Of a stretch of 64,000 nt of DNA, positions 7,769-37,216 are shown piece after piece. Position numbers and translations under genes: made by a program. Each line of letters begins with the position of its first letter. Position 1 is the stretch's first letter. The stretch is from positions 43,233 to 107,232 of the forward strand of contig JBGSRK010000009.1 of assembly GCA_041737595.1 (NCBI GenBank), given 5' to 3'. The notes beneath the pieces were generated by a model that was not told the DNA's origin, did no database searches, and was given only the letters and a program-made list of their open reading frames with translations. This DNA comes from Patescibacteria group bacterium. Lineage in GTDB: Bacteria; Patescibacteriota; CPR2; UBA1875.

Positions 7769-7935
7769 CTATATTTATTTAATCACAGTTTTTATTTATT
7801 AAGAAGCTTTTTAAGGTTATTGGATATTTCGACCATTTACAGCTTATGGTTCTGATGATAGAATGTCTCCACGTGAATATAGGATATGGATCCGTACTCA
7901 GGTTCCTAAAAACCGAAAGGCAAGGTGAATATCTA

Positions 7936-8847
7936 ATGAACGAAGATAGGACTGGCTTTCAACCTGATCATAGGGGGAAAGTCAGAGATATCTACGATCT
8001 TGGGGACAGACTTCTCCTAATCGCTACCGATCGAGCTTCGTCGTTTGATGTTGTTCTCCCTGGCACGATTCCTGGGCGCGGGGTGATTCTCACCAAGATC
8101 TCGAAGTTCTGGCTTGAGGGTCCACTCGCAGATATCGTCCCTAACCACCTTCTGAGCACCAATATCCTCGATCTTCCAGCTGACTTCCTGATGCAGTTCA
8201 CTTCTGATGAAGTGGACTATCTCGAAGGTAGAATCATGATCGCGAAAAAGGCCAAGGTTTTCCCTGTCGAATGTATTGTCAGGGGATATTTGGCCGGCTC
8301 AGGTCTCAAGGAGTACAACAATCAAGGGACCGTTTGCGGGATCGTTCTTCCTACTGGTTTGGTCAATTCCGACAAACTGCCGGAACCGATCTTTACTCCG
8401 TCAACCAAGGCCGAGGCAGGCTCCCACGACGAAAACATCACTTTTGGGCAGATGTGTCGCATTGTCGGCGAGTCAGTCGCAGTAGAACTCAAGCGGCTCT
8501 CTCTCGAACTCTACAACAGAGCGGCCGAACACGCTCTGGTACGAGGTGTCATCATTGCCGATACCAAGTTCGAGTTCGGAATCATCAACGACGAGATCAT
8601 GTTGATCGACGAAGTTCTGACCCCTGACTCATCTCGGTTCTGGCCTCTCGATGAGTACGAGCCAGGTCGGGAGCAGAACAGCTTCGACAAGCAGATCCTG
8701 AGGAACTACCTTACGGGTCTCAAGAAGCAAGGTCTGTGGAATGGAGAAGCCCCTGGGCCTGTCATTTCTCAAGAGATCGTCGAACAGACTATCGCACGCT
8801 ATCGCGAAGTCTACGGGAGAATCACCGGTCATACCTATATGGTCTGA
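7936..8847 (+). CDS. purC: SAICAR synthetase, long (actinobacterial-type) form; high-GC island gene
   Basis: GKVRDIYDLGDRLLLIATDRASSFDVVLPGTIPGRGVILTKISKFW ... IIADTKFEFG ... LTPDSSRFWP. GC ~55% versus ~30% in the flanks. The real start ATG is at 7936 (the ORF-track start at 7846 is an upstream extension). Confidence 0.85.
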   Translation: MNEDRTGFQPDHRGKVRDIYDLGDRLLLIATDRASSFDVVLPGTIPGRGVILTKISKFWLEGPLADIVPNHLLSTNILDLPADFLMQFTSDEVDYLEGRIMIAKKAKVFPVECIVRGYLAGSGLKEYNNQGTVCGIVLPTGLVNSDKLPEPIFTPSTKAEAGSHDENITFGQMCRIVGESVAVELKRLSLELYNRAAEHALVRGVIIADTKFEFGIINDEIMLIDEVLTPDSSRFWPLDEYEPGREQNSFDKQILRNYLTGLKKQGLWNGEAPGPVISQEIVEQTIARYREVYGRITGHTYMV

Positions 8848-8880
8848 CACCAACCCCTCAGAAGAAAGTGCTCCATGAAG

Positions 8881-8912
8881 GACCTCTCGCGCGAGGGGTT
8901 CTTTATTATTTA
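8881..8912 (+). terminator. Rho-independent terminator after purC
   Basis: GC hairpin CCTCTCGCGCGAGGGG followed by TTCTTTATTATTTATTT. Confidence 0.5.
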
Positions 8913-8913
8913 T

Positions 8914-9654
8914 TTATCTAACTATATCCCAATCAGATTCTTTATCATTTTTTAAAATAACTCTGTAAAAATAACTTTTCATTCTTTTAACGAGTTGTGA
9001 AAAAAATCTCCCTTGAAAACGACGATAACTAGTTTCTAGAATTAATTTGGGACAATATTTAATTTTTCCTATTTCTTTTACTCTTAAAGATAAATCAACA
9101 TCTTCAAGTGCGCTAATTTCGGGGTTAAACCCCCTTGACTTTAAATAGGCTTTTTTTGTAATCGCAAAGTTTAAACCCCGAAAAGCATACCCCCGATTAA
9201 ATATTCGATGGATATAATCGAAAAATATCATGGCAGACCGGAAAGAAAAATTAAATATATCGCTCTTATCAAAAAATCTATATGTCCCAACTGTTCCTAC
9301 ATATCTGTTATCATTTATATTATTATAAATTTTTATTAGCCAATCTGACGGTAGAACTGTATCTGCATCAGTGCTCGCAATAATTTCACTTTTGACCTTA
9401 GTAAAACCTTTTTTCCGAGCAGAACCAATCCCTTGTTTTTTCTCTTTTACAATCTTTAGGGTTGGTAATTTTTTTTTGTATTTATTTATTATTTCTAAAG
9501 TTTTATCAGTTGAATTATTATCAACTAGAATTAGTTCATATGATACCTCTTTAGAAAGATTTAATATCGAATTCAAGAGATGTATTATAGATTTCTCTTC
9601 ATTATAGAATGGTATAACAATAGATATTTTTGGACTATTTTGTAAATTCATCTT
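8914..9654 (-). CDS. Family 2 glycosyltransferase
   Basis: [11 protein letters not shown]...[12 protein letters not shown]...DADTV (DXD) are GT2 hallmarks. The start is probably MKMNLQ or MNLQ rather than the longest ORF. Confidence 0.75.
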
Positions 9655-11431: not shown

Positions 11432-11561
11432 TTTATACCTTTATTTTTTATATAAACTAAATTATAACAACAAACAGGAACGTAGCAAAGATAAACAAAA
11501 AAGATCTACTTTTAGGTTTTGTTAAATATCGAGATATTTTGTAAATAATCTTTTAGTTTAG

Positions 11562-15783: not shown

Positions 15784-15875
15784 ATTCTACCTTAGTTAAG
15801 TACCTAAATAGTTTAGTATCTTAACCTTTATTTGTCAATAATAAATTTTAGGTTAGTTTTAACCTTTACCTAAAT
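15784..15875 (-). promoter_or_regulatory. Promoter/operator region of the marR-ABC operon with inverted repeats (AGGTTAGTTTTAACCT; TTAACCTTTA x2)
   Basis: AT-rich intergenic region with a 6-4-6 inverted repeat typical of MarR operators. Confidence 0.3.
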
Positions 15876-16688: not shown

Positions 16689-16791
16689 AAGATTAGTTTA
16701 TCATTTTACTCAATTAATATAAATAAGCTAAACATAGACAGTTAATTTATTATCCTCTATTTAAAAATAGTAATAAAATCACAAAATATAC

Positions 16792-17832: not shown

Positions 17833-17857
17833 ATTAAAATTTTATCATAAAAGATAA

Positions 17858-18032
17858 TTAATCTTCATCTTCATTCTCAATATCTTCTTCAAAGTTATTT
17901 CCATCCTCTTCGGGCAAATAATCTGGATCTAAACTTTTGTTTTTTTTAGAAATTTTTTCTGCTTCTTCTGCATCTTTTAGCCTGCTTCTAAATTCGCCAT
18001 AACTATCAACCCCTGGTAAAAATTCCCGGCTC
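17858..18032 (-). CDS. Small acidic protein (58 aa), hypothetical
   Basis: ATG 18032..18030 preceded by AAGGAGG at 8-nt spacing. Sequence is MSREFLPGVDSYGEFRSRLKDAEEAEKISKKNKSLDPDYLPEEDGNNFEEDIENEDED. Confidence 0.5.
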
Positions 18033-21261: not shown

Positions 21262-21358
21262 ATACTCGTATCTTCCCACTTTCGTGGCTGGATTTAGCAC
21301 CGTTGTTATCCGGTTGTTGGTAGATCACTGGGCCAGGTCCCTAACTACACTCTCAATA
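21262..21358 (-). promoter_or_regulatory. SAM-I (S-box) riboswitch aptamer upstream of metK
   Basis: Minus strand: UAUUGAGAGUGUAGUUAGGGACCUGGCCCAGUGAUCUACCAACAACCGG...GGUGCUAAAUCCAGCCACGAAAGUGGGAAGAUACGAGUA. This matches the S-box consensus blocks AGGGAC.UGGCCC..UGA, GCAACC, GGUGCUAAUUCC.GC and GAAAGAUGAG, with P1 UAUUG/CGAGUA. Confidence 0.7.
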
Positions 21359-21409
21359 TATTCCTTTGTATTAATATTATATCATATTAATTTTATAAAC
21401 CCCCTATAA

Positions 21410-22586: not shown

Positions 22587-22716
22587 CTTTCTTTACTATA
22601 TTTTAACATATTATATATATTAGATTGGAGAATTTGTGTCATTTATATAAATAGACCGATAAAATCGGCCTATTTCGTATGCGTTCCATTTGGCGAAGCG
22701 AGTAACGAAGATAATA

Positions 22717-23835: not shown

Positions 23836-24669
23836 ATGTATATTTTTTTTAGATTTTTCACTAGAGGTATGTCCCATTTCTTCGAATCTATAAAGCTTGC
23901 ATTTTCTTGTAATAAGTCCTATAAACAGTCTATCAAACCATTAATCGAAAAAATTTATAACTGTATGTTTTTTAATCCAAAGAAGAAAAATGAATGGAAG
24001 TTTTGGGATTATAAAATGTCAAAAAAAGTTAGTGAAATTATTAAGGGAGGGGAATTTAAGGAAATAGAAGATCCGGTAGAAAAAAAGTTTTATTTTTGGT
24101 TATTAGAAGAATTGTCTAATGATATTAACTTTAATAAATTAAACACCCTTGAGTTAGGTGCAGGTTCTGGAGCTTTTTCCTATTATTTACAGAAGCGCTT
24201 CAGATGCTCGGTTACACTTTTAGATAATAGTAAAAATGCCATTAAATACGCAAAGTTACTAAACTATAGAGCAAAAATATTAGAAAAAGATGCTCGGCAG
24301 TCATTTGGTATCAGTAAATATAATTTTATTCATACAACTGGGTTACTTGAACACCTTAATGACAAAGATATAAAACAAATAATCAAAAACATTAAGCGAG
24401 CCTTAAAACCTAATGGTATAGCCTTCTTAGCAGTCCCAAATTATTTTAGCCCAGCATTAATAACACTATGGAAAATTCACGGCAAGGGTTCAGAAAGGTA
24501 TATAACAATAAGAGATCTTAAAAAATATATAAAATCTTATGGATTTAACTTGATTGCAGCTCGTCATTCGTATTTTAGTTTTGAAAAGATAACAAGATAT
24601 ATCTGGTTGGAGAAAATAATAGGTAGACTCGGTCTAGGCTTTTTAAATTATATTATTGTACAAAAATGA
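23836..24669 (+). CDS. Class I SAM-dependent methyltransferase
   Basis: LELGAGSGAFSYYL (motif I) ... LLDNS ... LKPNGIAFLAVP. Confidence 0.7.
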   Translation: MYIFFRFFTRGMSHFFESIKLAFSCNKSYKQSIKPLIEKIYNCMFFNPKKKNEWKFWDYKMSKKVSEIIKGGEFKEIEDPVEKKFYFWLLEELSNDINFNKLNTLELGAGSGAFSYYLQKRFRCSVTLLDNSKNAIKYAKLLNYRAKILEKDARQSFGISKYNFIHTTGLLEHLNDKDIKQIIKNIKRALKPNGIAFLAVPNYFSPALITLWKIHGKGSERYITIRDLKKYIKSYGFNLIAARHSYFSFEKITRYIWLEKIIGRLGLGFLNYIIVQK

Positions 24670-24946
24670 AAACCAATAACGAACATTCAAATTATTAAAA
24701 ACTTATATCTTGGTTACCAATTTATAATTTTTAAGGTTGAAAAATAATATAATGAGTTAGTTTATTTGTATTATTTGTAATTTTAGTTTAAAAGGAGAAT
24801 TATTATATGACTAGATAAAAAATAATTTCTGAAATGTTTATTACTAACCAAAAGATTAAAATGGCTATTTAATATATTATAGATTCTTATTGAATTTATT
24901 ACGATTATGGCTTATTATTAATGAAATATTAAAAAAAGGAAAAATC

Positions 24947-25963
24947 ATGTATATATATAATAAAAAATATTTCATTGTTACACTGGTTGTATTGGCTTTA
25001 TTCCTAATTACATGTATCGTATTTAATATTTATATGCCAAAAAAACAGACATCTAAAACAAAAATTAGAATTGGTTGGCAAACTCCTTGGGCTATTCAAG
25101 GACAAATAGCTCAAAGTTTAAAAAATACTGATTATTTATCAAAAAATAATCTAGAACCAGAGTTTACTGGTTTTGATTCTGGTGCTCCTCTTAATGAGGC
25201 TGCGTTAGCAGGTAAAGTAGATGTTATATTTACTGCGGATCAACCAGCCGCTACATTATTATCTAAAAGCAGTGACTGGGTAATTGTTTCGCGATTGATG
25301 TATAATAGGGTTTCTCTGTATGTACCACCAAAATCAAGTATTTTAAGCATATCTGATTTAAAAGGGAAAACAGTTGGTATGCCATTTGGGGCAGCGGCAC
25401 AGAGAATGGCTTATAAAGCAGAACAAGATATGGGGCTAAAACCAGGCATAGATGTGAAAAATGTAAACCTGGGAATCTATGAACAAAGTGATTTGGTAAA
25501 AAATTCTGAAGCAACTAATTGGGGCAACTTTGATGCCTTAGCAGGTTTTGATCCGACCCCAGCTGTATTTGAAGATAAGGGACTTATAAAGATGCTTAAA
25601 ACCGATACTGTTATTTCACTAGTACTTGTAAACAAAAAATATATTTCTGAAAATACTGACTCAGTTCGTAGTTTTCTAAAATCACTTAAGTCTAGTTATC
25701 TATTTTATGCACAAAATCAGGAAAAAGCTAACAAATGGTTTAAGGATGCTTCTAGACTAAATATCTCGGATAATGCACTAAAAATTTCTGCCTCTGTTGA
25801 ACCAAACTTAAAAGCAAAAAAAGAAAAAGATATAATACTTAATTTAAATGATAATGATTATAAAATAATGCAGGAAGCTGCAGACTTTTTATTCAATAAT
25901 GGTTTAATAAAAACTAAGGTTGATATGCGAGCTAATGTGAATTTAGATTATCTTACAAAGTAA
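24947..25963 (+). CDS. ABC transporter substrate-binding protein, NMT1/THI5-like (NitT/TauT family)
   Basis: N-terminal TM anchor, then IRIGWQTPWAIQGQIAQ...FDSGAPLNEAALAGKVDVIFTADQPA. Confidence 0.75.
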   Translation: MYIYNKKYFIVTLVVLALFLITCIVFNIYMPKKQTSKTKIRIGWQTPWAIQGQIAQSLKNTDYLSKNNLEPEFTGFDSGAPLNEAALAGKVDVIFTADQPAATLLSKSSDWVIVSRLMYNRVSLYVPPKSSILSISDLKGKTVGMPFGAAAQRMAYKAEQDMGLKPGIDVKNVNLGIYEQSDLVKNSEATNWGNFDALAGFDPTPAVFEDKGLIKMLKTDTVISLVLVNKKYISENTDSVRSFLKSLKSSYLFYAQNQEKANKWFKDASRLNISDNALKISASVEPNLKAKKEKDIILNLNDNDYKIMQEAADFLFNNGLIKTKVDMRANVNLDYLTK

Positions 25964-27081
25964 TGAAAAATATCCTACTTATTTCTATTGATTCTGTAAG
26001 AGCAGATGTAGCATATAATAGCAATCTACCTACATTAGATAATTTAGCAGCCGATGGTATAAAATACATTAATTGTATTTCCTCCTCTCCTCTTACCCCA
26101 GTTAGTCATGCGACTGTTTTGACTGGTTTACAACCATTTAACCACGGTGTCAGACATCTTTTTAAGGAAAAAATGAATGACAAAAGACCAACATTAGCAG
26201 AAATACTGAAATTAAATGGATATAAAACAAGAGCCATTGTCTCTTGTCCAGGGATGAATAGTTGGTACGGATTTTCTCGTGGTTTTGATATATACGATGA
26301 TGAAATCCCAAAATTAACAGACGGTTCTGATGCTCTACTTACTGTTGATGTTGAAAAAAGAGGGTTAGCAATGAAAAGAGCGAAAGACGTAGTTGATAGG
26401 GCTATTTCACATATAGATGAGTTAGATAACAACTTCTTTCTTTTTGTTCACTTTTTCGATGCGCACTGGCCTTACAACCCTCCTAAAAAATATGGTGGAA
26501 AAAATAAATACGAAGAGGAAGTATTTTATACTGATCATCATTTAGGTAGACTTATTAATCACCTTAAAGAGATTAATAAGTATAAAGATACTACTATTAT
26601 ATTATTCTCTGACCACGGGGAAGATCTTGGCGGATGGTATCCGAACGATAAAGCAGGAGATAAATATGGTAATCCAGACGAAAAAGGTCATGGTACACTA
26701 CTATATGATCAGACCATAATGACTGTTCTTATTATAAAAGACTCACGAATTAAAAAAAATCAGACTGTAATAGACCAAGTCAGGCTTGTTGATATTATGC
26801 CAACAATCTTAGATTTACTAGATATAAAAACTGATAATCAGTTTGATGGATTTAACCTTTTAAAGACAACTGAAGAGGAGGGAAAACAGCTACTAGGCTA
26901 TTCTGAGACTTTTTTCCCTGAAGAAATCAAAAGTGGTATTAGTAGAAAAAAATCATTCCGTTTAAATAATACTTATAAAGTCATTATTGGGTTAGATAAT
27001 GATGCAATTGAGTTTTATAACTTAATTGCTGACCCAAACGAGCAAAACAACATGTTTAAAACAATTGACAAAAATGCATAA
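25963..27081 (+). CDS. Alkaline-phosphatase-superfamily enzyme, nucleotide pyrophosphatase/phosphodiesterase (NPP)-like, cytoplasmic
   Basis: LLISIDSVRADV; LTPVSHATVLTGL (Thr nucleophile, T-x-P-x-H motif); FSDHGE. No signal peptide. Confidence 0.7.
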   Translation: MKNILLISIDSVRADVAYNSNLPTLDNLAADGIKYINCISSSPLTPVSHATVLTGLQPFNHGVRHLFKEKMNDKRPTLAEILKLNGYKTRAIVSCPGMNSWYGFSRGFDIYDDEIPKLTDGSDALLTVDVEKRGLAMKRAKDVVDRAISHIDELDNNFFLFVHFFDAHWPYNPPKKYGGKNKYEEEVFYTDHHLGRLINHLKEINKYKDTTIILFSDHGEDLGGWYPNDKAGDKYGNPDEKGHGTLLYDQTIMTVLIIKDSRIKKNQTVIDQVRLVDIMPTILDLLDIKTDNQFDGFNLLKTTEEEGKQLLGYSETFFPEEIKSGISRKKSFRLNNTYKVIIGLDNDAIEFYNLIADPNEQNNMFKTIDKNA

Positions 27082-27091
27082 GTTTGGTAGA
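27063..27091 (+). promoter_or_regulatory. Consensus sigma70-like promoter TTGACA-N17-TAGAAT for the high-GC hisS cassette
   Basis: TTGACA 27063..27068, a 17-nt spacer, then TAGAAT 27086..27091. It lies inside the 3' end of the NPP gene. Confidence 0.45.
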
Positions 27092-27148
27092 ATATGCCCT
27101 ACGAAGGCTCAGTGGGCTTTCGGGCCCCTTAAAAAGGAGAAGATTTAG

Positions 27149-28450
27149 ATGAATAAGAAAAGAGCAGGACTCCTTAGTGGGTTCTTGGATTTCCTTCCCG
27201 AGGTAGAGCTCATGAGAGAGGCCATGATCGATAAGGTTACTGGCGTCTTCAAGCTCTATGGGTATGGTCCCCAAGATACTCCCTGTCTGGAGTACGCCGA
27301 GACCTTGTTAGACAAGTATGGTGAGAACCAGAAGCTTGTCTACGAGTTCGAGGACAATGGTGGGCGAAAGGTTGCCCTGAGGTATGACCTGACCGTTCCG
27401 CTTTCACGTGTGGTGCCGTCCTATCCAAGTAAGATCAAGCTTCCATTCAAGCGCTACCAAGTAGGCAAGGTGTGGCGAGCAGATCGTCCTGGTAAAGGAC
27501 GTTTTCGCGAATTCATACAAGTAGATGCTGACACAATCGGCACGTCCTCGCCGCAGCTCGATTCTGAGCTTGTCATGGTTACACTTGATGTCATCGCCGC
27601 ACTGAAGCTCACAGCATATGTGAGGATCAACGATAAACGGATCCTCGACGCTCTGAGCAAAACATGTGGTCTGACCGAAGAGCAGAAGATACTTGTACTG
27701 CGCTCAATTGACAAGCTGGATAAGATCGGTCAAGACGCTGTAGTTGTCGAGATTAGCAAGATTGGCCTCGATGCTGAGAAGCTAGATATCGTACAGCAGT
27801 ATCTCGGCATCAACGGGATACCCCGTGAAGTCATCACCAGTCTTCGCGACTTGCTTCAGCCGTGTACTGAGCTTGACGAGGGATGCAAAGTTCTCGAGAC
27901 AGTATTCGAAACCGTCTTTGCGCTTGGCTACGATGCCAAGTCTCTGCGTATCGATCCATGTATCGCCCGAGGCCTCGACTACTACACGGGAGTCATCTTC
28001 GAGACCATGCTGGTTGATAACCCAGAATTCGGGAGTATCTGTTCCGGCGGACGTTACGACTCGATCGTCAAGGATGGCAATGGCAGAGTTTTGCCGGCGG
28101 CCGGTGTTTCAATCGGCCTAGATAGACTCTTTGCGGCCATGCTTGATCGGGATCAGCTTCCCAATGCGGAAGCAGTTGCGAGAGTCCTCATTACAAACAT
28201 GGGAGACTCTACTGCTCGGAAAGCAACAGAGATCGCCTCGTCACTCAGACGCGCCGGTATCTCTGTGCTTTACTACCCAGAAAAGGCCAAGCTCGCAAAA
28301 CAGCTTGGCTACGCATCCGACCTTAAGATCCCTTGGGCCCTTATCGTAGGTCCCGAAGAGATCGAAGCCGGTATGTACACCATCCGTTCTATGGTAGACC
28401 GTCAGCAGACAACCGTACCCCAGGATCAAATCATCAAATCACTCCGCTAG
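27149..28450 (+). CDS. hisS: Histidyl-tRNA synthetase, high-GC island copy
   Basis: GRFREFIQVDADTIG (motif 2/HisA), CSGGRYDSIV...AAGVSIGLDRL (motif 3), and a C-terminal anticodon-binding domain. GC ~56%. AAGGAG SD. Confidence 0.9.
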   Translation: MNKKRAGLLSGFLDFLPEVELMREAMIDKVTGVFKLYGYGPQDTPCLEYAETLLDKYGENQKLVYEFEDNGGRKVALRYDLTVPLSRVVPSYPSKIKLPFKRYQVGKVWRADRPGKGRFREFIQVDADTIGTSSPQLDSELVMVTLDVIAALKLTAYVRINDKRILDALSKTCGLTEEQKILVLRSIDKLDKIGQDAVVVEISKIGLDAEKLDIVQQYLGINGIPREVITSLRDLLQPCTELDEGCKVLETVFETVFALGYDAKSLRIDPCIARGLDYYTGVIFETMLVDNPEFGSICSGGRYDSIVKDGNGRVLPAAGVSIGLDRLFAAMLDRDQLPNAEAVARVLITNMGDSTARKATEIASSLRRAGISVLYYPEKAKLAKQLGYASDLKIPWALIVGPEEIEAGMYTIRSMVDRQQTTVPQDQIIKSLR

Positions 28451-28493
28451 ATCAGTGGGGCGGCTTCGCCGCCCCACTGATCTCAATCTTTTA
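28450..28493 (+). terminator. Strong terminator: 15-bp perfect hairpin GATCAGTGGGGCGGC-TTCG-GCCGCCCCACTGATC followed by TCAATCTTTT
   Basis: Seen directly. It overlaps the hisS stop codon and ends 8 nt before the permease start. Confidence 0.6.
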
Positions 28494-28500
28494 AACGAAA

Positions 28501-29136
28501 ATGATTATTTTAAATAACATATTAACATTATTTATTACAGATGGACTTGCCAGCCTTAGTCGGGTTTTTGTCGGTTTTTTTATTGCTATTATTCTAGGGG
28601 TAGGGCTAGGTACTATTACTTTTTATATAAAAGGGTATAGAAATATACTAAAATTAATTGCAGAATTTCTTAAGTCAATTCCACCCATAGCATGGATTCC
28701 TATTACTATTATGTTTTTAGGGCTTGGTTCGCAATCTGCGATATTTATAGTCTTTTTAGGTGGTTTCTTCCCTATTTTTCTTAATACAGCTTACGGCGTA
28801 ACTTCAATGCCAAAAAAATATACTGAAATATCAAAAAATTTCGGAGTAAATGGAGTATATTTTTATCATAAAATTCTCTTAGGCTATCTCATGCCATATA
28901 TATTAACAGGGCTAAAAATAGGGATAGGGATTGCCTGGACAAGTGTAATTGCCTCTGAAATGATAGGAGTTCAAAGTGGTCTTGGCTATTATATTCAGAT
29001 AAACAGACTTTTACTTAATACCCAGGAGGTAGTTACTGGCATGGTAATGATAGGCGTAATTGGTTACGGAATGACAAAGTTTGTTGAGAAAATTGAGAAG
29101 AAGTACTTAGTTTGGCAAGAGGCAAAGAATGCTTAG
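28501..29136 (+). CDS. ABC transporter permease (binding-protein-dependent inner membrane component, SsuC/TauC-like)
   Basis: EAA-like loop region and 6 TM helices. It is adjacent to the ATPase. Confidence 0.8.
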   Translation: MIILNNILTLFITDGLASLSRVFVGFFIAIILGVGLGTITFYIKGYRNILKLIAEFLKSIPPIAWIPITIMFLGLGSQSAIFIVFLGGFFPIFLNTAYGVTSMPKKYTEISKNFGVNGVYFYHKILLGYLMPYILTGLKIGIGIAWTSVIASEMIGVQSGLGYYIQINRLLLNTQEVVTGMVMIGVIGYGMTKFVEKIEKKYLVWQEAKNA

Positions 29137-29815
29137 ATTGGATAATGTTATTTTTAATAGAGGCGGCAAAAGAATACTTGAAAATATCAACATTCATATC
29201 AAAAAATCTGAAGTTGTGAGCATACTTGGACCATCGGGGATAGGGAAAACTACTCTTGCAAAGATTATGTCAGGTTTACTGAATCCTATTTCTGGTTCAG
29301 TATTTTTAGAGGGGAATATTCTGAAAACCCCTGTACCAACACTAGTATTATCTCACCAAGAATCAGATTTGTTTGATTGGTTGACGGTTGAGGAAAATGT
29401 AGGGTTAGTAGGTGGCAAGAAAAACGCAGAAAAATGGCTTAATATATTTGGTCTGGTTGAATACCGTAATAACTATCCAAAAACCCTCTCAGGTGGTATG
29501 AAAAAAAAAGTTTCACTAGCTAGAGCCGCAAGTGTAAATCCTTCTGTAATAATTTTAGACGAGCCGTTCTCTTCACTGGATGAAAAACAAAAAATAAAGT
29601 ATTATAAAGAATTTAAAAATTTAGCAAATCAAGAAGGAGTTGCAATTATTGTTGTGACTCACGACATAAACGAAGCATATAATTTTTCAAACAGAATTAT
29701 TTTTCTAGGTGGCAACCCTGCGACTATAATAGATGAAAAAATTCCGACCGGGGAAGAAAGTTCAAGTGAAAAAAGAGATTTAGTACTAAAAAATCTTGAG
29801 TCGATAGGAAAATGA
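29129..29815 (+). CDS. ABC transporter ATP-binding protein (SsuB/TauB-like)
   Basis: GPSGIGKTT; LSGGMKKKVSLARA; ILDEPFSSLD; THD H-loop. Confidence 0.85.
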   Translation: MLRLDNVIFNRGGKRILENINIHIKKSEVVSILGPSGIGKTTLAKIMSGLLNPISGSVFLEGNILKTPVPTLVLSHQESDLFDWLTVEENVGLVGGKKNAEKWLNIFGLVEYRNNYPKTLSGGMKKKVSLARAASVNPSVIILDEPFSSLDEKQKIKYYKEFKNLANQEGVAIIVVTHDINEAYNFSNRIIFLGGNPATIIDEKIPTGEESSSEKRDLVLKNLESIGK

Positions 29816-29818
29816 AAG

Positions 29819-31159
29819 ATGAAATATTTAAAAACCGTACTCCCGATGGAAATAAATGAAATCCCAAAGGCAGCTTCGCTTTTAATATCAAGAGCAAGAG
29901 ATTTTGAAGTCTTACTATTTTCTGAGGCAGGGAGCTGGCCTATTAAATATATTTGGGAAAAGATGGCTGCAAAAGATAATAATTATAATAAAGTATTTTT
30001 TTCATCAAAAATTACTTCATTTTCAAAAAGTCCACTAGCTAATCAATTGTGTGGACTGCTAACAATTACTGAAAGAAAATCAAAGCTTTCTCAAAAGAAA
30101 AAAAATAAGATTGCTACACTTTTAAATTCATTTAATGATGAATTTAAAGGTAAAATAACAAATCAGTTACTTAATCAAAATGTAGAAAAAATTATACATT
30201 ATATTTCTTCAATGGGGCTTATAATCCCTAGTGAAGAAGGGTTGATAAAACAAAATAAATGTTTTGATAATAATATATCCACACTTAGTAAAAATTTTAT
30301 TGATTTTAAAAAAAAATCAGTATCATACATTCTTTCTGATCTCCCAAATATTAAACATGAAGTTAGGCCTATACTGCAGATAATTTTATCAGATACTAAA
30401 TTTGGTAAAGCAATAAAGTCACGAAAAGTTTATGTATTTGATGAGATAATAAGTCGTGGGAGGACTATCAATTCTATAGAAGTGATTATAAATTCATTTT
30501 CATCCACAACGGATTGGGTTATGGGAGTTGTCTATTGCCCAAAGTTTTATGTTGGAAGTAAAATTGATTTTGTTTATAGCGATAAAAAGGCATTACCTAC
30601 GTCAAATCGACCAGATATGATTGGAGAAGTGACTTATGAGACTGTATTTGCTTTTGAAACTAAATCACTTACGAATATTTTGCCTAATACAAGAGTAAAA
30701 AATGAAGACGATATAAGTATTTATAACAGTGAAATTGCAAAGTTTAATAGTCGATATTTCCCAAAGCTTAAAATGTTAAATAAGACATCTTTTCGAGCTC
30801 TTTTAAACTTATACTTTATGGCTGACGATAAGGATATATTTGAAAAGTGCCTTCATCTTAATTTAGTTGAATCAGTAAGCCTTTTAGAAGAAATCGCTTT
30901 TTATATAACAATGCCATTTCCACTTTCAGATATTATAAAACGAAATAAGTTTAAAAAAGAATCACGGCAAGTATTAAAAAAATTAGAATGCTCAATAACT
31001 AATTCTGATTTTTCTGATAACCTTAACAAGCTAAAAATAAAGTACTATGCTATTAGAAGTATAATTATTAAGAGTGAAATAGCTTCCTGGATAAAAACAA
31101 ATACTAAAGTAATAAGGGAGTTAGACTTAGTACTGGAGGAGGTTTTTAATGGAAAATAG
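29819..31159 (+). CDS. Hypothetical 446-aa protein with a central PRPP-binding (type I PRTase)-like motif
   Basis: KVYVFDEIISRGRTINS resembles hhhhD(D/E)hh(T/S)(T/S)GxT. The N- and C-terminal parts are unrecognised. It sits inside the ABC/NPP cluster. Confidence 0.35.
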   Translation: MKYLKTVLPMEINEIPKAASLLISRARDFEVLLFSEAGSWPIKYIWEKMAAKDNNYNKVFFSSKITSFSKSPLANQLCGLLTITERKSKLSQKKKNKIATLLNSFNDEFKGKITNQLLNQNVEKIIHYISSMGLIIPSEEGLIKQNKCFDNNISTLSKNFIDFKKKSVSYILSDLPNIKHEVRPILQIILSDTKFGKAIKSRKVYVFDEIISRGRTINSIEVIINSFSSTTDWVMGVVYCPKFYVGSKIDFVYSDKKALPTSNRPDMIGEVTYETVFAFETKSLTNILPNTRVKNEDDISIYNSEIAKFNSRYFPKLKMLNKTSFRALLNLYFMADDKDIFEKCLHLNLVESVSLLEEIAFYITMPFPLSDIIKRNKFKKESRQVLKKLECSITNSDFSDNLNKLKIKYYAIRSIIIKSEIASWIKTNTKVIRELDLVLEEVFNGK

Positions 31160-32546
31160 CTATAAACATATTATTCTTATTTCTATTGATACTTTACGAG
31201 CAGACTGTATTACTGCAGTCGAAACTAGTGATTTTATAAAAAAATATGGTCCAAAAAATTTTTCTACAAAATCACTAAATAATATTGTGAAAAAAGGTAC
31301 TTTTTTCACAAACTGTATCTCGGCAGCACCATATACAACAGCTTCACATGCAGCCTATTTTACTGGTTGTTGGCCTAAAAATAACGGAGTTTATGAATTC
31401 TTTAACCAAAAATTAAAGAAACCTACTATATTTGAATTTGCAAAAAATAACCAATATAGAACTATATTTCAAACTGACTTTCCTATTATTCTAGGTGAAA
31501 CACTTGGGTTTACTAAGGATGTTGATGATTATTTTATTGAGGATGAAATATCAGCTTTTGACAAATTAAAAAATTCAACAAAAAAAACTGTTTCTTTTTT
31601 CCATTTTGGTGGTGTTCATTATCCATATGGGTTTCATAAACTAAAGTTTGCTGGAAAGGATTATATCCATAAAGTTGAAAGTCTAGAAAAAGAATTATCC
31701 GTTAGTAGTAAAGACAAATTAGACGATATATTAGTAGAAAGCTATTATAATAACAAAGATAGAGAGCTACTTTCCAGATATAAAAGGATAGTCGACAAAC
31801 TTTACAGAGAAAAAAAATATAATCGACTGAAGAATCTATATATTGAGGGAATAGATTATTTTATGGAAAATCGGTTCAATAGCTTTATAAAAAAAATAGT
31901 TGATTTTACCGACAGCACTGGTAGTTTACTAGTTATCTTTGCTGACCATGGGGAAGAATGGGATGATTTATCGCGCGGACATGCAAATTCCATCTCTGAC
32001 ACTGTTCTTCGAGTCCCTCTTATATTCTATGGGAAGGGTATCCCAAAAGGCGTAATAAATGATAGTTTAGTTAGAACAATCGATCTTCTCCCTACTATTT
32101 CGAATTTATTTAACATAGAAACCCCTCAATTAGATGGCGTAGCCATGAAATTTACAAAAGAAAAGAAAAATACAAACAATATGGCAATTTCTCAGGTTTG
32201 GAGATTAGGAGATAAGGATAAAATAGCAAAACACCAACAAATGATGATTAACAAAGAAAAGGTGGCGCCCCTACAGACTCTCTTAGAAAAAGAATCAATA
32301 TATTTCAAAAATGTAGCATTTAAAAGAATATACAACAAAGAAGGAACAACTATTTCTGAAAAAACATATTATAATAATGGAAAACAACTTATAAATTCAG
32401 TTGATACACAAAATGAAGAGTTAATAATAATGAAAAATCTACTTGAGAAATATAATTCAAAAGGATTTCGAAAAGTTGAGGCGGCAATTAGTTTACCTAA
32501 AAGACTTATTAAAGAGCTTCGCATGCAGGGCTATAAAATAAAATAA
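31149..32546 (+). CDS. Second NPP-like alkaline-phosphatase-superfamily paralogue, cytoplasmic
   Basis: ILISIDTLRADC; YTTASHAAYFTGCWP; FADHGEEWDD. Confidence 0.7.
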   Translation: MENSYKHIILISIDTLRADCITAVETSDFIKKYGPKNFSTKSLNNIVKKGTFFTNCISAAPYTTASHAAYFTGCWPKNNGVYEFFNQKLKKPTIFEFAKNNQYRTIFQTDFPIILGETLGFTKDVDDYFIEDEISAFDKLKNSTKKTVSFFHFGGVHYPYGFHKLKFAGKDYIHKVESLEKELSVSSKDKLDDILVESYYNNKDRELLSRYKRIVDKLYREKKYNRLKNLYIEGIDYFMENRFNSFIKKIVDFTDSTGSLLVIFADHGEEWDDLSRGHANSISDTVLRVPLIFYGKGIPKGVINDSLVRTIDLLPTISNLFNIETPQLDGVAMKFTKEKKNTNNMAISQVWRLGDKDKIAKHQQMMINKEKVAPLQTLLEKESIYFKNVAFKRIYNKEGTTISEKTYYNNGKQLINSVDTQNEELIIMKNLLEKYNSKGFRKVEAAISLPKRLIKELRMQGYKIK

Positions 32547-32557
32547 AGGAGAATATT

Positions 32558-33844
32558 TTGCCTAAATATAAAACAATTAAACCTCCCAGAGGAATGCATG
32601 ATCAATTTGAAGAAGATTTATTAAAAATTGAATCAGTTATTTCTATAGCATCTGAGATTGCTAGATCATACGGATTTAAAAGAATAGAAACCCCCACTAT
32701 TGAGTCAATCGAAGTTTTCACAAATACTGGAGATAAGACGATTGATAAATGTTTTACATTTATGGATAAATCAAACCGCGAGATGATATTGAGACCAGAT
32801 ATAAATGCTCCAATCAGCCGCGCTATAGTAAATCATAGCTCATCTCAACCACTACCTCAAAAAATATTTTTCCATGGCAGCGTTTTCAGATATAGAAAAT
32901 CATACCGACGTGAGTTTATTATGTTTGGGGTAGAGACATATGGGATTGCTGAGCCTATTGCAGACGCCGAAATACTTCGAGTAGTGGTTGATTTGATTAA
33001 AAGACTGGGTTTTAAAAAATATACGATTGAATATAGTAATCTTTCAATATTTAGTAGGTTGATTAAATTTTTATCAAAGACAGACAAAGTTAATGTTAAT
33101 GTAGAAGAGCTAATATATAAGCTTAGATTTCATAATAAAAAAGAGCAAAAAAGTATTTTAAATAAAATAGGTTTCCAAAAAAAATCAGAAGAGCTAATCA
33201 TGGATTTTCTATCTTGCCCAGAGGTGAATAAAAACAGCTTTAATTTACTTAAAAAGGTAGCGGCTATGGATAAGTCTATAGAAATTGAAGCTCTGTCTGT
33301 TCTGAATTTCCGAGATGAACTCTTAAAACAACAGTTATCAAATTGTATTTTTAAAATTTCAAATCTACATGGTGAATCATTTTACTCTGGTCTTACATAT
33401 CGTTTATATTTATCAACAGAAATGGGAGATGGGGGAAGATATGACAATTTTACTCTTTTACTAGGGGGTTTATATATTCCAGCTACTGGGTTAGGTTTTG
33501 GTATTAGTAGATTAATTAGACTAGCAGAAGCAGAAAGTATATTAATCCCAATAAAAACAAACATAAAATATTTAGTTCGAATAGTAAGAGGCTCTGAAGA
33601 AACTGTACGACCTTATCTGAGATTACTTAGGAAACAAAATATTATTGTCAACGAAATCCCTGAAGACTATAAAGATGATCGGTTGATGCCATTTGCAATC
33701 AAAGGTGGTTATCACCGTATCTTTGTTATAAAAAGTTTTAACAAAATAAGTGGACTTTATGAAGTTTGGTCAATAAATATAGTTGATGGAACTAATAAAA
33801 AATTTTCTACATATGGTCTAAAAGATATATTTAATTGCTCATAA
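32558..33844 (+). CDS. Second histidyl-tRNA synthetase homologue (low-GC, native-composition copy)
   Basis: Class II motifs: ILRPDINAPISRA (motif 1 region), FRYRKSYRREFIMFGVETYG (motif 2), GDGGRYDNF...ATGLGFGISRLI (motif 3), and a C-terminal anticodon-binding-like domain. It is 12 nt downstream of NPP-2. Confidence 0.75.
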   Translation: MPKYKTIKPPRGMHDQFEEDLLKIESVISIASEIARSYGFKRIETPTIESIEVFTNTGDKTIDKCFTFMDKSNREMILRPDINAPISRAIVNHSSSQPLPQKIFFHGSVFRYRKSYRREFIMFGVETYGIAEPIADAEILRVVVDLIKRLGFKKYTIEYSNLSIFSRLIKFLSKTDKVNVNVEELIYKLRFHNKKEQKSILNKIGFQKKSEELIMDFLSCPEVNKNSFNLLKKVAAMDKSIEIEALSVLNFRDELLKQQLSNCIFKISNLHGESFYSGLTYRLYLSTEMGDGGRYDNFTLLLGGLYIPATGLGFGISRLIRLAEAESILIPIKTNIKYLVRIVRGSEETVRPYLRLLRKQNIIVNEIPEDYKDDRLMPFAIKGGYHRIFVIKSFNKISGLYEVWSINIVDGTNKKFSTYGLKDIFNCS

Positions 33845-34023
33845 TATTAAAATGTGAAGACAAACCAGGTAATATTATATTTAGATCTTTTCCCCAAATT
33901 ACAAACTTAGGCGATGCGAGTAACGCAGTGACTATCCAGAAAGATATAGAAATGAGATAAATAAAACATTATAAAAAGGGATAGTCTTTATGTTTCTTAT
34001 ATTTTTTAAGTATTAAAGGAAAG

Positions 34024-34052
34024 AAGCCACACCCCGCTGGGGTATGGCTTCA
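34024..34052 (-). terminator. Hairpin/terminator downstream of purB (GAAGCCACACCCCG-C-TGGGGTATGGCTTC)
   Basis: 11/12-bp stem at the left edge of the high-GC island, with a T-rich tail on the minus strand. Confidence 0.4.
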
Positions 34053-34074
34053 ATTCCGTTGTGTCTTATTCGAT

Positions 34075-35481
34075 CTAGATGGTCAGTGAGCCAAGAATTT
34101 CGGTCCACTGGCCGACAATGCGCTCGGTCGACTCAATCGAGAGACCAATATAGTTATGCGCCGGATCCTTGATAGTCGCAAGTTCAGAAGCGTTGAAAGT
34201 GTTGATATAGGTACGAAGCTTCTGACTTTGAAGTGCGAGGTCCTGGACCGAGACCCCTGTCTCTTTCGACTCGAGAGTCAAAAGACGAACAGCTTCATGC
34301 GCATCCGGATGACCGTGTTTGGCCAAAAGAATGTAGAGCTGCTCACCACATGAACCCTTTCTCATCTCGAGGTTGCGTTCCATGTTGCCAGTGTGAACCT
34401 GAAGCTTCTTCATCGTTTTTGTGATTTTGGTCACGACGATGTAGAGATAGCCCAGAATCTCACCATAAGTACGGCCGGATGCTGAGTTAGTTAGGTCACG
34501 TTGGTGCTCACAGATCTGATCAAGCTGGACCGTAACCCAGCGACCAACCAGAACCTTGTAGAGTGACTCCGCGTTTTCGAAGTTGATCGGGTTCTGCTTG
34601 TCGGGCATCGTTGATGACCCGACCTGACCAGCTTCGAAAAATTCACCGACTTCGGCAATTTCTGTACGCTGCAGGTTCCGCATATCGCGTGAGAGTCCGG
34701 CAAGGAGTCCGGCGGTCTGTACGACCTCAAACAGTAGGTACTGAAGCGGTTCAGGTGGTGCGATCTGAGTTGAGATCGGCGCCGGGTTGACACCAAGTCG
34801 GCCAAGCACAAGACGCTCGAACTCACGAGGATCATCCACTAGAAGCGAGCTGGCATTGTACGCTCCAACTGCTCCAGAGAACTTCCCAACCAGACCGTTT
34901 TTGGCCTGGCAGAGTTTAAGAATCTTCTGACCAAGGGCGTCGACGTACTTTGAGATGGCATTGCCAAAGGTGATCGGAACGGCGTGTTGGCCGTGGGTTC
35001 GACCTACCTGAAGCTGAGCCTTCTCCCGGAGAGCAAGATCGATTAGGACCTTCTCGAGCTCGATCAGAGCCGGAAGAAGGACCTGTTCAGTCACTGCCTT
35101 GTAGCGCGCCACGTTGGCAGTATCGATAATGTCGTACGAAGTGGCAGCAAGGTGGACGAATGGACGGGCTTCTGGACTTACTCGAGCCTGAATGCAGTTG
35201 ACGACCGCTCGGATGTCATGCCGTGTCAGATCTTCCTCCTTGTACACCTCATCGGTCGTGATCTGCTTGCAAGCCTCAGTGACCTCATCAAGGACATCAG
35301 ACGAACAAAGGCCAAGCTCTGCAAGAGTGGCAACAAGCGCACACTCTGCCTCGAGCTTGTAATCCGTGAAAGCATTCTCGGACAGGAACGGTACGAGCGG
35401 AATCACATCCTTCGCGTAACGAGTATCGATAGGAGCAATCCCATCCCAACGGTCATAAGTGACTTTTTCAGTAGGCTCCAT
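34075..35481 (-). CDS. purB: Adenylosuccinate lyase; high-GC island gene
   Basis: The fumarate-lyase family signature region and the PurB N-terminus (YDRWDGIAPIDTRYA) are present. GC ~57%. Start is probably ATG 35481 (MEPTEK) with AGGAG upstream; the longest ORF starts at GTG 35517. Confidence 0.85.
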   Translation of the reverse strand: MEPTEKVTYDRWDGIAPIDTRYAKDVIPLVPFLSENAFTDYKLEAECALVATLAELGLCSSDVLDEVTEACKQITTDEVYKEEDLTRHDIRAVVNCIQARVSPEARPFVHLAATSYDIIDTANVARYKAVTEQVLLPALIELEKVLIDLALREKAQLQVGRTHGQHAVPITFGNAISKYVDALGQKILKLCQAKNGLVGKFSGAVGAYNASSLLVDDPREFERLVLGRLGVNPAPISTQIAPPEPLQYLLFEVVQTAGLLAGLSRDMRNLQRTEIAEVGEFFEAGQVGSSTMPDKQNPINFENAESLYKVLVGRWVTVQLDQICEHQRDLTNSASGRTYGEILGYLYIVVTKITKTMKKLQVHTGNMERNLEMRKGSCGEQLYILLAKHGHPDAHEAVRLLTLESKETGVSVQDLALQSQKLRTYINTFNASELATIKDPAHNYIGLSIESTERIVGQWTEILGSLTI

Positions 35482-35752
35482 GGCGATTATCTTCTCCTTT
35501 TTCAAAGGGCTGGACACAACGAGAATGTCGCTATTTTACTACCAAATAAGGGAAAGGTAAACGTGCTTTATATCCTAAATGTTCAAAAAACTTTATTTTT
35601 TTAAATCGATTTTAGTAAAAATAAAAAAATAGATAAAAAACATGAATTATTTACAGTAAACGATTGTTATGTTAATATACCCGCACGTGTAAGAAAGACA
35701 AACGTCAAGATCTACAGTTTCCTTCAATAGAGAGGTAAGGTGAAAAGGCTCT

Positions 35753-36301
35753 ATGGCTGCAAACGTACCGCTTCTTAGTACCAAATGGCCCAACAAAGAG
35801 GCATATGTCGCGATTGTGCTCGGTAGCAAGAATGATTACAGCAAGATCGAAAAGTTGATCGAGATGATGGAGAAGTTCTCTATCCCCTACGTCATCGTCG
35901 TCATCTCGGCACACCGCAACAAGCAAAAACTCGACGAGTTCATCCAAGGATTATCTGCCACAAACGTTCGCTTTGTCGTAGCTGTCGCCGGTATGGCAGC
36001 AGCACTAGGTGGCGCAATTGCCGCGGAGACCTGTCTTCCAGTATTTGGCATCCCACTACCATCACCGAATGACCCCGATGGTATTGGTGCCAAATTCGCA
36101 ACCAATGAGTTGCCTCCAGGCATCGCACAAGTAGCAGTTCTGGCGGACAATGTCTCAGACAACAGCACACGAATCGTGAACTTGATTGCTCGAACTCTTG
36201 CGATCCTTGACCCCAACTATAAGGGGTTGAAAGAGTTCATGGCAAGTGCATCCGTCGAGAAGCCACCAGTCATTCCGTATGTTCCAAAGGAGGCGAGCTA
36301 G
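35753..36301 (+). CDS. purE: AIR carboxylase / N5-CAIR mutase catalytic subunit; high GC
   Basis: YVAIVLGSKNDYSKIEK...VISAHRN...VAVAGMAAALGGAIAAETCLPVFGIP. Confidence 0.85.
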   Translation: MAANVPLLSTKWPNKEAYVAIVLGSKNDYSKIEKLIEMMEKFSIPYVIVVISAHRNKQKLDEFIQGLSATNVRFVVAVAGMAAALGGAIAAETCLPVFGIPLPSPNDPDGIGAKFATNELPPGIAQVAVLADNVSDNSTRIVNLIARTLAILDPNYKGLKEFMASASVEKPPVIPYVPKEAS

Positions 36302-37156
36302 ATGGCTCACAGAAGAGAAATCAACCGTGGCAAGACTAAGACGATCTACGAAGGCACCAAACTCGGAACTGTCCACGTTGTCAGTCGTGACGACATAACC
36401 GCTGGCGATGGCCAGCGTAAAGATCTGATCCCGGGCAAGGGCCATCTTTCGACCGTCACTACCGCGAACATGTTCATGCTTCTTGCCGCACACGGCATCC
36501 CTACCCACTTCATGAGCATGATCAATGGGAATACGTTCAAAGCGAAGCAAGTCGACATGATCCCGCTCGAATGTGTCGCTCGGAGACTCGCTGTCGGTTC
36601 GTTCCTTGATCGTCAGCCCTCGTTCAAATCCGATCCTCCTCACCGCTTCGAGGCGATTGTTACCGAGCTCTTCTACAAGAGCGACGCAGACAACGACCCG
36701 ATCGTCGTTCCTCAGAGCAACGGTGAGCTCTGGATTCACGATGCACACAAGCCGATTACAGACGCAACCCACAAGGGTATGCTTTCACCGGTGGCGTATC
36801 ATGTCCCACCGGAGAGCTACAACGGCACTCAACTCGAACTCATCGAACAACTGCTCAAGATCACCGAACGAGTCTTTGAGATCCTTGAGCAGGCCTGGCG
36901 ACAAATGGCGAACGCTAATCTCGTTGATCTCAAGATCGAATTTGGGGTGACGAGTGATGGCGAGCTCATAGTTGCCGACGTTATCGATGCAGATTCATGG
37001 CGTCTCTGGCCAGACGGCGACCCGAACCAGGCATGGGACAAGGACTACTACCGTCAGCATGCCGATGCTTCTCGCATTGAAGCTACTCTTCACAAGTACA
37101 ATGAAGTAGCCAAGGCGAGTAACGTTGTTGCCACTTACCGAGACATGACATCCTAA
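36302..37156 (+). CDS. purC: SAICAR synthetase, second copy (E. coli/yeast-type), translationally coupled to purE (TAGATG)
   Basis: GKTKTIYEG...SRDDITAGDGQRKDLIPGKG...LVDLKIEFG...DADSWRLWP. Confidence 0.85.
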   Translation: MAHRREINRGKTKTIYEGTKLGTVHVVSRDDITAGDGQRKDLIPGKGHLSTVTTANMFMLLAAHGIPTHFMSMINGNTFKAKQVDMIPLECVARRLAVGSFLDRQPSFKSDPPHRFEAIVTELFYKSDADNDPIVVPQSNGELWIHDAHKPITDATHKGMLSPVAYHVPPESYNGTQLELIEQLLKITERVFEILEQAWRQMANANLVDLKIEFGVTSDGELIVADVIDADSWRLWPDGDPNQAWDKDYYRQHADASRIEATLHKYNEVAKASNVVATYRDMTS

Positions 37157-37187
37157 CCCCCTTAAGGGGAGAAAGAACCTGAAGGTT

Positions 37188-37216
37188 CCCTCTCTCTGAG
37201 AGGGGGCCTTTATTTA
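37188..37216 (+). terminator. Terminator after purE-purC (CCCTCTC-TCT-GAGAGGG followed by CCTTTATTT)
   Basis: Seen directly. It is preceded by a CCCCTTAAGGGG palindrome. Confidence 0.4.

Follow-up and report, generated by a model that had tools for sequence, protein, structure and literature searches.

GC-rich transcription units carrying purine biosynthesis genes and hisS in an AT-rich Patescibacteria genome: a probable case of gene flow within the phylum

In the amelioration framework of Lawrence and Ochman, compositionally atypical genes are treated as acquired ones and may form 'genomic islets'. Xenologous or non-orthologous gene displacement occurs within conserved operons. The genes of aminoacyl-tRNA synthetases (aaRS) undergo horizontal replacement and duplication, and extra copies are found inside gene clusters. 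Most Patescibacteria have no de novo nucleotide synthesis. GC-biased gene conversion or selection for GC is reportedly at work in bacteria too, and the effect described by Lassalle et al. 2015 and Hildebrand et al. 2010 is said to amount to a few percent of the GC content at third codon positions (GC3) in many genes. Here we analyse a stretch of 64,000 nucleotides (nt), called the window below, from a Patescibacteria group bacterium of the CPR2 lineage (GenBank assembly GCA_041737595.1, contig JBGSRK010000009.1, positions 43,233 to 107,232). Five of its genes, namely purC1, hisS, purB, a purE-like and a purC2-like gene, are located in three GC-rich blocks. With moderate confidence we read these blocks as self-contained transcription units acquired laterally from GC-richer Patescibacteria, the purine genes by xenologous displacement.

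Exchange of genes inside the phylum has been described. About 83% of the detected transfers into Patescibacteria come from within the phylum, and competence was proposed as the route (Gios et al., mSystems 2025, PMC12455944). The transfers in that study were detected by high nucleotide similarity between co-occurring metagenome-assembled genomes (MAGs). Purine genes and hisS are unreported there, the terms 'purine' and 'tRNA synthetase' having 0 occurrences each. De novo nucleotide synthesis is missing from 93% of genomes, and the genes for it have a patchy distribution across the phylum (bioRxiv 10.64898/2026.06.21.733656).

GC-rich units in the window

The GC content of the whole window is 0.33, and the three blocks climb to about 50-55% GC. 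The transitions, at 60-bp resolution, are at about 7860 and 8903 (island 1, purC1), 27085 and 28495 (island 2, hisS), and 34020 and 37210 (island 3, purB, purE and purC2). The five genes are the compositional outliers among the open reading frames (ORFs), with about 52% GC and GC3 of 0.56-0.61. The native ORFs (n = 47) have GC3 of 0.204 ± 0.036 (range 0.13-0.29), so that the outliers lie 9.9-11.3 standard deviations above them. The codon usage of the five outliers is mutually correlated (r from 0.32 to 0.73, each against the pooled other island genes). Their relative synonymous codon usage is anticorrelated with the native one; native genes have a mean correlation of 0.87 with their own pool and at most -0.06 with the island pool. 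Conserved native genes, namely purSL, purM and three aaRS genes of host GC, are not enriched. The remaining local rises of GC coincide with tRNA genes (58280-58637) and with a T-box-like leader (54866-55030). An ORF of 119 amino acids (aa) at 54410-54769 on the minus strand has intermediate composition (GC 0.42, GC3 0.40, 5.5 standard deviations over native) and no family match; it could be an older acquisition.

The GC-rich unit is the transcription unit, from promoter to terminator, and extends beyond the coding sequence alone. All five island genes have a strong Shine-Dalgarno (SD) box (AAGGAG, AAGGTGA or AAGGAGG), whereas most native genes have none. The 55-nt leaders of the island genes contain 40-51% GC, compared with 23 ± 6% upstream of native genes. 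Every island unit closes with a GC-rich hairpin resembling an intrinsic terminator. The promoters and terminators listed in Table 1 are candidates recognised by their match to the consensus. The -35 box of hisS falls within the final codons of the native sulfatase gene, whose stop codon is at 27081. Motifs TTTGGTAG and AAAAAGGAGAAGAT are common to hisS and purB. A short motif TCAGTGGG is found at 27109-27118 in the hisS leader and again at 28452-28461, within the first terminator arm of the gene; this recurrence may be coincidental. A scan of the island-gene leaders with Rfam gave nothing at E ≤ 0.05-1. Control of these genes by a riboswitch or T-box was rejected, as only native genes carry a T-box-like leader and a SAM-like element.

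Gene identities were assigned by NCBIfam profile scores against curated cut-offs, and by Pfam and PDB matches; the enzymatic functions are those predicted from homology. The purC1 product scores 384 bits with PRK13961 (cut-off 251), the match beginning at aa 30 of the long ORF, and in the PDB it is closest to yeast Ade1 (256 bits), followed by the PurC of M. abscessus (238 bits). HisS scores 360 bits with TIGR00442 (cut-off 287) and consists of the tRNA-synt_His catalytic core and the HGTP_anticodon domain. The scores of the other three proteins are below the cut-offs, and they are therefore divergent forms: 274 bits with TIGR00928 for PurB (cut-off 326), 92 bits with TIGR01162 for PurE (cut-off 150), and 123 bits with TIGR00081 for PurC2 (cut-off 190). 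PurB has the precomputed Pfam domains Lyase_1 and ASL_C. Its fumarate-lyase signature GSSTMPQKRNP is intact, and residues S301, S302, T303, M304, P305, K307, N309 and P310 are invariant in 22 homologues including the window protein. A longer GTG start of purB at 35517 is probably unused. The best PDB match of the PurE-like protein is the class I PurE of E. coli (68 bits). The SAHR motif is kept; the 70s loop is AAALGG, without histidine, where class I enzymes have AAHLPG. PurC2 is a short form with the SAICAR-synthetase domain of human PAICS as its best PDB match (146 bits).

Much of this had been proposed from the letters of the window alone. The original prediction had three sharply bounded high-GC islands with expression signals of their own, and this holds: GC3 is about 10 standard deviations off, the edges at 60-bp resolution are essentially where it had placed them, and each island has a promoter or SD box and a GC-rich terminator. 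It had also distinguished two types of PurC, and these are the long form of yeast Ade1 and mycobacteria (PurC1) and the short form nearest to the PAICS domain (PurC2). Finally, its division of the pathway into native early steps (PurS~L, PurQ, PurM) and foreign-type PurE, PurC and PurB agrees with the comparisons below.

Table 1. Coordinates of genes and candidate signals in the window and, where named, in the related locus L089
Feature	Position	Strand	Remarks
Native purine operon	2905..7768	-	purS~L 4832-7768, purQ 4016-4831, purM 2905-4014
purC1, long-form SAICAR synthetase	7936..8847	+	ORF open from 7846 (7846-8847), probable start ATG 7936, 303 aa; SD AAGGTGA; GC 0.51, GC3 0.59
Extended -10-like box TGATAGAAT before purC1	7856..7864	+	consensus match, putative function; GC rise begins here
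purC1 terminator	8881..8912	+	GC-rich hairpin and T-run, read from sequence
hisS	27149-28450	+	GC 0.51, GC3 0.57
hisS promoter-like site TTGACA-17-TAGAAT	27065..27093	+	upstream TG; 11/12 matches; near-consensus TTGACA-17-TGnTAGAAT
hisS terminator	28449..28483	+	16-bp stem, 11 G-C pairs; end 17 nt before permease ATG at 28501
hisS cluster	23836..33844	+	methyltransferase, SsuA/NMT1-like binding protein, sulfatase, hisS, ABC permease, ATPase, 446-aa protein of no assigned function, sulfatase, HisS-like paralogue
HisS-like paralogue	32558-33844	+	host GC (GC3 0.21); 190 bits with TIGR00442 (cut-off 287); no anticodon-binding domain
purB, adenylosuccinate lyase, Patescibacteria/DPANN/archaeal type	34075..35481	-	468 aa; start 35481 as in NCBI and Logan; GC 0.52, GC3 0.57
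purB terminator hairpin	34023..34051	-	13 pairs; kept in L089 with one indel in stem
purB promoter and 5' untranslated region	35482..35571	-	TTTACC ... TGGTAGTAAAAT ... SD AAGGAG; 82/90 nt conserved with L089
purB/purE divergent spacer	35572-35700	.	22% GC, host-like AT-rich; not common to L089
purE-like	35753-36301	+	GC 0.50, GC3 0.56
purC2, short-form SAICAR-synthetase-like	36302..37156	+	start codon immediately after purE stop; GC 0.53, GC3 0.61
purC2 terminator hairpin	37188..37206	+	consensus match
Intergenic hairpin modules	window ~22632-22700 (-), 37249-37300 (-), 16713-16730; L089 1319-1391, 1937-2031, 3659-3756		
ComEC competence channel and metallo-beta-lactamase domain protein (separate ORFs)	39571..41908	+	possible DNA-uptake route

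Relatives of the purine genes and of hisS

The native purine operon of the window has host composition (GC3 0.17-0.22). The closest relatives of its PurS~L are 63-67% identical, and the closest one with an organism name comes from a Patescibacteria MAG. The relatives of the host (L083, L087/L088) have one operon purSL-purQ-purC~E-purB-purM with uniform host-like GC3, and their PurSL, PurQ and PurM are 59-68% identical to those of the window. In the window the gap between purQ and purM is 1 nt, and it is exactly here that the relatives hold purC~E and purB. The PurB of these relatives is only 23% identical to the high-GC PurB of the window. Their PurC domain has 34% identity to PurC1 and no match to PurC2 or PurE, and L083 and L087 lack the foreign-type purine genes of the window. 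In the relatives the purC and purE genes are fused (the 506-aa PurC~PurE of L087, 13922-15442, and the 797-aa triple fusion PurQ~PurC~PurE of L083, 4288-6681), and the PurC~PurE fusion resembles animal PAICS. The window PurSL is 41% identical to that of L027, a Paceibacteria-type locus, and 65% identical to that of the host's relatives; the window PurB is 52% identical to the L027 PurB and 52-57% identical to Paceibacteria-type PurB in general. The affinities of PurSL and PurB are thus discordant, and therefore the purine genes of the islands are probably xenologues that displaced lost native genes. No purF, purD, purN/T, purH or purK was found within the 64-kb window.

One sister copy of the purB unit was available for comparison, from an independent sample (L089, SRR7589087). 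The nucleotide identity is 91.5%, and the alignment covers window positions 34011-35571, that is, exactly the terminator, the coding sequence and a further stretch of about 90 nt that holds promoter and leader. The homology stops at the unit edges, and the L089 unit lies in different AT-rich surroundings. The ratio of nonsynonymous to synonymous divergence (dN/dS) between the two copies is 0.069 with dS 0.35, and the gene is therefore under strong purifying selection. None of the native flanking proteins (9 of 9) has a cluster-mate at ≥90% identity, whereas PurB has one.

The window and L089 also share a family of intergenic hairpin modules with conserved flanks ..CCAAATGRAAC.. stem-loop ..TTATTTATATTAATGACAYAAAT and differing, compensating stems. 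In L089 two of the modules form direct repeats of about 95 bp on both sides of the purB unit. An integron-like or repeat-mediated insertion of cassettes was rejected, as these repeats are the hairpin modules, which are present once beside island 3 and absent from islands 1 and 2. Next to purB, L089 has a second GC-rich unit (stretch ~1400-1940) with a 79-aa ORF (1487-1726, GC3 0.60) without Pfam match, and MwoI-like restriction-enzyme genes are located upstream of it.

A database of about 15 billion proteins was searched with PurB, HisS and PurC1, and the best 120 matches each were considered for PurB and HisS. The best matches of PurB are 52-59% identical, and the named ones are all from Patescibacteria (Nealsonbacteria, Parcubacteria, Paceibacterota, Sungbacteria, Yonathbacteria, Kaiserbacteria). 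Those of HisS are 43-47% identical, with Nealsonbacteria, Saccharimonadales and Paceibacterota as the leading names. The PurC1 representatives are 53-59% identical; the affinity to Andersenbacteria (58%) is thin, because this is the sole named match of ten. In GTDB representatives, similarity to PurB decreases from Patescibacteria to DPANN and then to Halanaerobiales/Bacillota. In the neighbour-joining tree the window PurB occupies a long branch inside the Patescibacteria clade. The adjacency of purB and purC2 recurs in the Patescibacteria loci L027, L040 and L113. A phage vector was rejected: viral contigs hold relatives of PurB at ≤42% identity only, and no relative of HisS.

The hisS gene belongs to a cluster that occurs, with shuffled gene order, in at least four genomes, namely the window, L112 (177-10347), L114 (524-10618) and a JGI contig. 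These are the homes of the closest HisS homologues. The cluster is made up of an SsuA/NMT1-like binding protein, a pair of sulfatases, one or more methyltransferases, a full-length HisS together with a HisS-like protein that has no anticodon domain, and an ABC permease with its ATPase; NIF3 belongs to it as well outside the window, and one contig adds a radical-SAM protein and HisG. The cluster proteins of L112 and L114 are 42-59% identical to those of the window. An insertion of hisS splitting an SsuA-sulfatase-permease operon was considered, as L094 has contiguous SsuA, permease and ATPase genes; it was dropped, since HisS and the HisS-like protein are regular members of the cluster elsewhere.

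The other genes of the window are a typical Patescibacteria core (ComEC, TilS, FtsH, MurJ, TsaD, FemAB, Mur ligase, LD-carboxypeptidase). Near comEC there are a gene for a RhuM/Fic-DOC family protein (38597-39583, minus strand) and two tRNA-Met genes 120 nt apart (42327-42597, plus strand). An element resembling a T-box leader (54866-55030, plus strand; 46 bits, E 5e-7, under the Rfam gathering score of 93) lies directly upstream of a class I aaRS ORF (55000-57222) and overlaps its annotated GTG start. An element resembling a SAM riboswitch (21265-21362, minus strand; 43.7 bits, gathering score 44.4) precedes metK. From its position, the true start of metK would be downstream of the GTG at 21328.

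Explanations for the GC-rich units

For the purine genes lateral patching is the best reading, because the relatives keep purC~E and purB in the operon and the window has lost both. We infer the following direction, timing and mechanism of transfer. An ancestral purSL-purQ-purC~E-purB-purM operon would have lost its middle part, purC~E-purB. Steps 6-8 of inosine monophosphate synthesis would now be carried out by the products of unlinked genes, that is, purE with the short purC2, the long purC1, and a purB of the Paceibacteria type. The DNA may have been taken up by the competence machinery (ComEC) and integrated by illegitimate or homology-assisted recombination, with subsequent selection for function. 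The GC signature would persist because the replacements are fairly recent, recurrent, or both. On this account purB would repeatedly flow from GC-richer to GC-poorer Patescibacteria, and hisS has probably been replaced repeatedly in the same manner.

One pair of loci is informative on the recurrence. L008 comes from a host of 43% GC (purB at 7965-9371) and L017 from a host of 57% GC (purB at 237-1613). Their purB genes have 84.7% nucleotide identity and dS 0.75, whereas a neighbouring RNase-Y-like gene is saturated (proportion of synonymous differences 0.81) and tracks the GC of each host. The GC3 of the L008 purB (about 0.57) is between that of its host and a donor-like 0.66. The most likely reading of the pair is that purB was exchanged, or replaced in place, after the hosts had diverged, the L008 gene appearing part-way ameliorated. 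A tRNA gene of L008 (~9440-9520) immediately follows the purB terminator.

Several observations weigh against lateral acquisition as set out here. Firstly, the donor is not seen: with the exception of L089, the 15 billion proteins hold no homologue closer than about 57-59% for PurB, 47% for HisS and about 59% for PurC1, and therefore a recent transfer would need a wholly unsampled donor lineage. Secondly, the islands of the window are not accompanied by integrase or transposase genes, by a tRNA target or by direct repeats on their flanks. Thirdly, island 3 is not uniform, being interrupted by the AT-rich purB/purE spacer. Fourthly, the purB copies of the window and L089 both have GC3 of 0.57-0.58 despite dS 0.35. 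Fifthly, in the three cluster-bearing genomes compared, the pattern of HisS divergence agrees with that of neighbouring cluster proteins: HisS identity is 58% between L112 and L114 and 46-47% to the window, as compared with 75 and 58% for the SsuA-like protein and 70 and 57% for sulfatase 1, so that there is no phylogenetic discordance. Nevertheless HisS is a GC outlier in three of three genomes, with GC3 0.57 in the window, 0.63 in L112 and 0.46 in L114, compared to 0.20-0.43 in the neighbours. One recent import therefore cannot explain hisS. Finally, the GC3 of purB stands out above that of the adjacent genes in about 10 of 14 Patescibacteria loci from GTDB (0.58 vs 0.38-0.49 in L004, 0.56 vs 0.30-0.46 in L008, 0.46 vs ~0.22 in L019, 0.62 vs ~0.40 in L052), and purB is never GC-depleted. 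In hosts of 42-46% GC it is richer by at least 0.06 in 7 of 9 loci and poorer in 0 of 9. Further GC-outlier ORFs in the related loci gave no informative annotation.

Such recurrence likely reflects either repeated replacement from GC-richer relatives, with the L008/L017 pair in support, or maintenance of GC at particular genes. The latter is the strongest rival, although we regard it as unlikely. By this explanation a persistent gene-specific force keeps the purB type, its purC partners and the cluster hisS GC-rich in AT-rich Patescibacteria. This could be selection acting on DNA or mRNA, to make it stable or to protect it from an AU-directed nuclease or an AT-binding silencer; alternatively, it could be GC-biased conversion at often-recombining loci. 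The GC signal would then date no transfer, and the purine genes would still be lateral, possibly of long ago. The constancy of GC3 near 0.57 in window and L089 purB, the missing closer donor, and the hisS gene that co-diverges with its neighbours yet stands out in three genomes all agree with maintenance. Synonymous sites are saturated in the hisS cluster, because the proteins are only 42-75% identical among the three genomes. The enrichment of purB is one-directional in most Patescibacteria loci, while the purB genes of DPANN and Bacillota match their flanks in GC. The richness ends at the limits of the transcription units, leaders included, and the spacer between units is AT-rich. The low dS of purB compared with its neighbour in the L008/L017 pair would be expected, too, if synonymous sites were constrained.

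On the other hand, such a force has no demonstrated mechanism, and high GC is not a fixed property of the gene family: the HisS-like paralogue of the window has host GC, whereas its counterparts are GC-rich in L112 (GC3 0.55) and L114 (0.43). The GC excess spreads widely, from +0.03 to +0.22, as differing stages of amelioration would predict. The non-cluster HisS of a Nealsonbacterium (L115) and the purB genes of L021 and L034 are not outliers, and the conserved native purSL, purM and aaRS genes of the window remain unenriched. In its strong form, which we find a shade less plausible still, a small set of units would be actively kept GC-rich, from promoter to terminator, over deep time by a force undescribed in Patescibacteria. 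It might be selection for GC-rich mRNA, for example to withstand an AU-directed RNase or toxin or an imbalance of the nucleotide pool, or else intense local recombination with GC-biased conversion. If so, GC discordance would be an unreliable sign of recent transfer in these genomes.

We return to lateral acquisition from GC-richer Patescibacteria and to what had been predicted about it. The original prediction had suggested recent horizontal acquisition. The patching of the purine pathway stands, whereas 'recent' and 'insertion' are doubtful for hisS, which is a member of a conserved cluster, co-diverges with it and is GC-rich in three deeply diverged genomes; moreover, the purB anomaly recurs across Patescibacteria. 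It had also held that placement of the island genes in the clade of the flanking genes would speak against transfer. Such common placement holds for the phylum as a whole but not for the sub-lineage to which the host belongs.

A high-GC donor from outside the candidate phyla radiation (CPR), for instance the episymbiont's own host of Actinobacteria or Chloroflexi type as then expected, is improbable. The GC content of about 52% and the long 'mycobacterial-like' PurC1 would fit such a donor, and in a sample of purB loci PurC1 is 47-52% identical to Bacillota PurC and 33-39% to that of CPR and DPANN. However, this sample is biased, and a Bacillota-like PurC1 was rejected after the exhaustive search named Andersenbacteria only. 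Wherever a nearest homologue of PurB, HisS or PurC1 carries a name, it is from Patescibacteria. The best 120 matches each for PurB and HisS include no entry named as Actinobacteria or Chloroflexi, and names from outside CPR (Nitrosopolaris, Planctomycetes, Deltaproteobacteria) occur there only lower, at 41-45%. The position of PurB inside the Patescibacteria clade and the purB-purC2 linkage, which is a Patescibacteria arrangement, point the same way.

A chimeric assembly or binning artefact joining GC-rich reads to an AT-rich contig is hardly credible and effectively excluded by a second assembler and the independent L089: sharp steps in composition look like a chimera, and the Logan contigs (SRR28170473) that span all junctions are 100% identical to the window, probably from the same sample and therefore a case of agreement between assemblers, not an independent population, but all six junctions are exactly at the edges of transcription units, the -35 box of hisS is inside the 3' end of a native gene, the L112 and L114 clusters show the same mosaic, the L089 purB unit is embedded in AT-rich DNA with the host's intergenic hairpin family, and the islands provide precisely the functions lost from the native operon.

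The window would thus exemplify pathway repair by gene flow within the phylum in ultra-small bacteria, with three consecutive steps (PurE, PurC, PurB) re-supplied as ready-to-express units. Repeated replacement and GC upkeep each bear on the compositional detection of horizontal gene transfer and on amelioration clocks in CPR genomes.

Comparison with known systems

Atypical-GC islets, xenologous displacement, replacement of aaRS genes and exchange within the Patescibacteria are all established. The literature searched contained no report of a GC excess that is bounded by transcription units and recurs in the same genes across distant genomes.

The islands resemble genomic islets in their foreign GC, GC3 and codon usage, precise to the gene, in affinities unlike those of the flanking genes, and in a context that varies between the window and L089. 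They differ in that mobility genes, tRNA targets and flanking repeats are absent from the window, in that the donor is unsampled, and in that the same families are outliers in many distant genomes, which a one-off model does not predict. Integron cassettes are likewise small single-gene units ending in an imperfect palindrome. However, the units described here have their own promoters, are dispersed and have no integrase, and their four terminal hairpins have no attC-like sequence in common.

GC-biased conversion would raise GC3 at frequently recombining loci against AT-biased mutation. Here the increase is +0.35 in GC3 and limited to single transcription units.

As in other cases of aaRS replacement, a full-length HisRS of foreign composition is found near a HisRS-like paralogue without anticodon domain, in a conserved cluster that is not translational. 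Unlike them, this HisRS diverges in step with its cluster and has a high GC content in every genome compared.

The purine genes follow the pattern of xenologous displacement: the purC~E-purB segment of the relatives is absent, and the same steps are served by distant versions (PurB at 23% identity). The peculiarity is that the replacements lie outside the operon, in two other places and as separate units, and that the SAICAR synthetase is present in two unrelated forms. Finally, the nearest relatives among Patescibacteria, the competence genes, and single-gene transfers altering metabolic capacity are all in line with the exchange inside the phylum described in PMC12455944, the difference being that here the donor is unsampled and the detection is by composition. 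The window is an unusually clear and well-documented case of these known processes.

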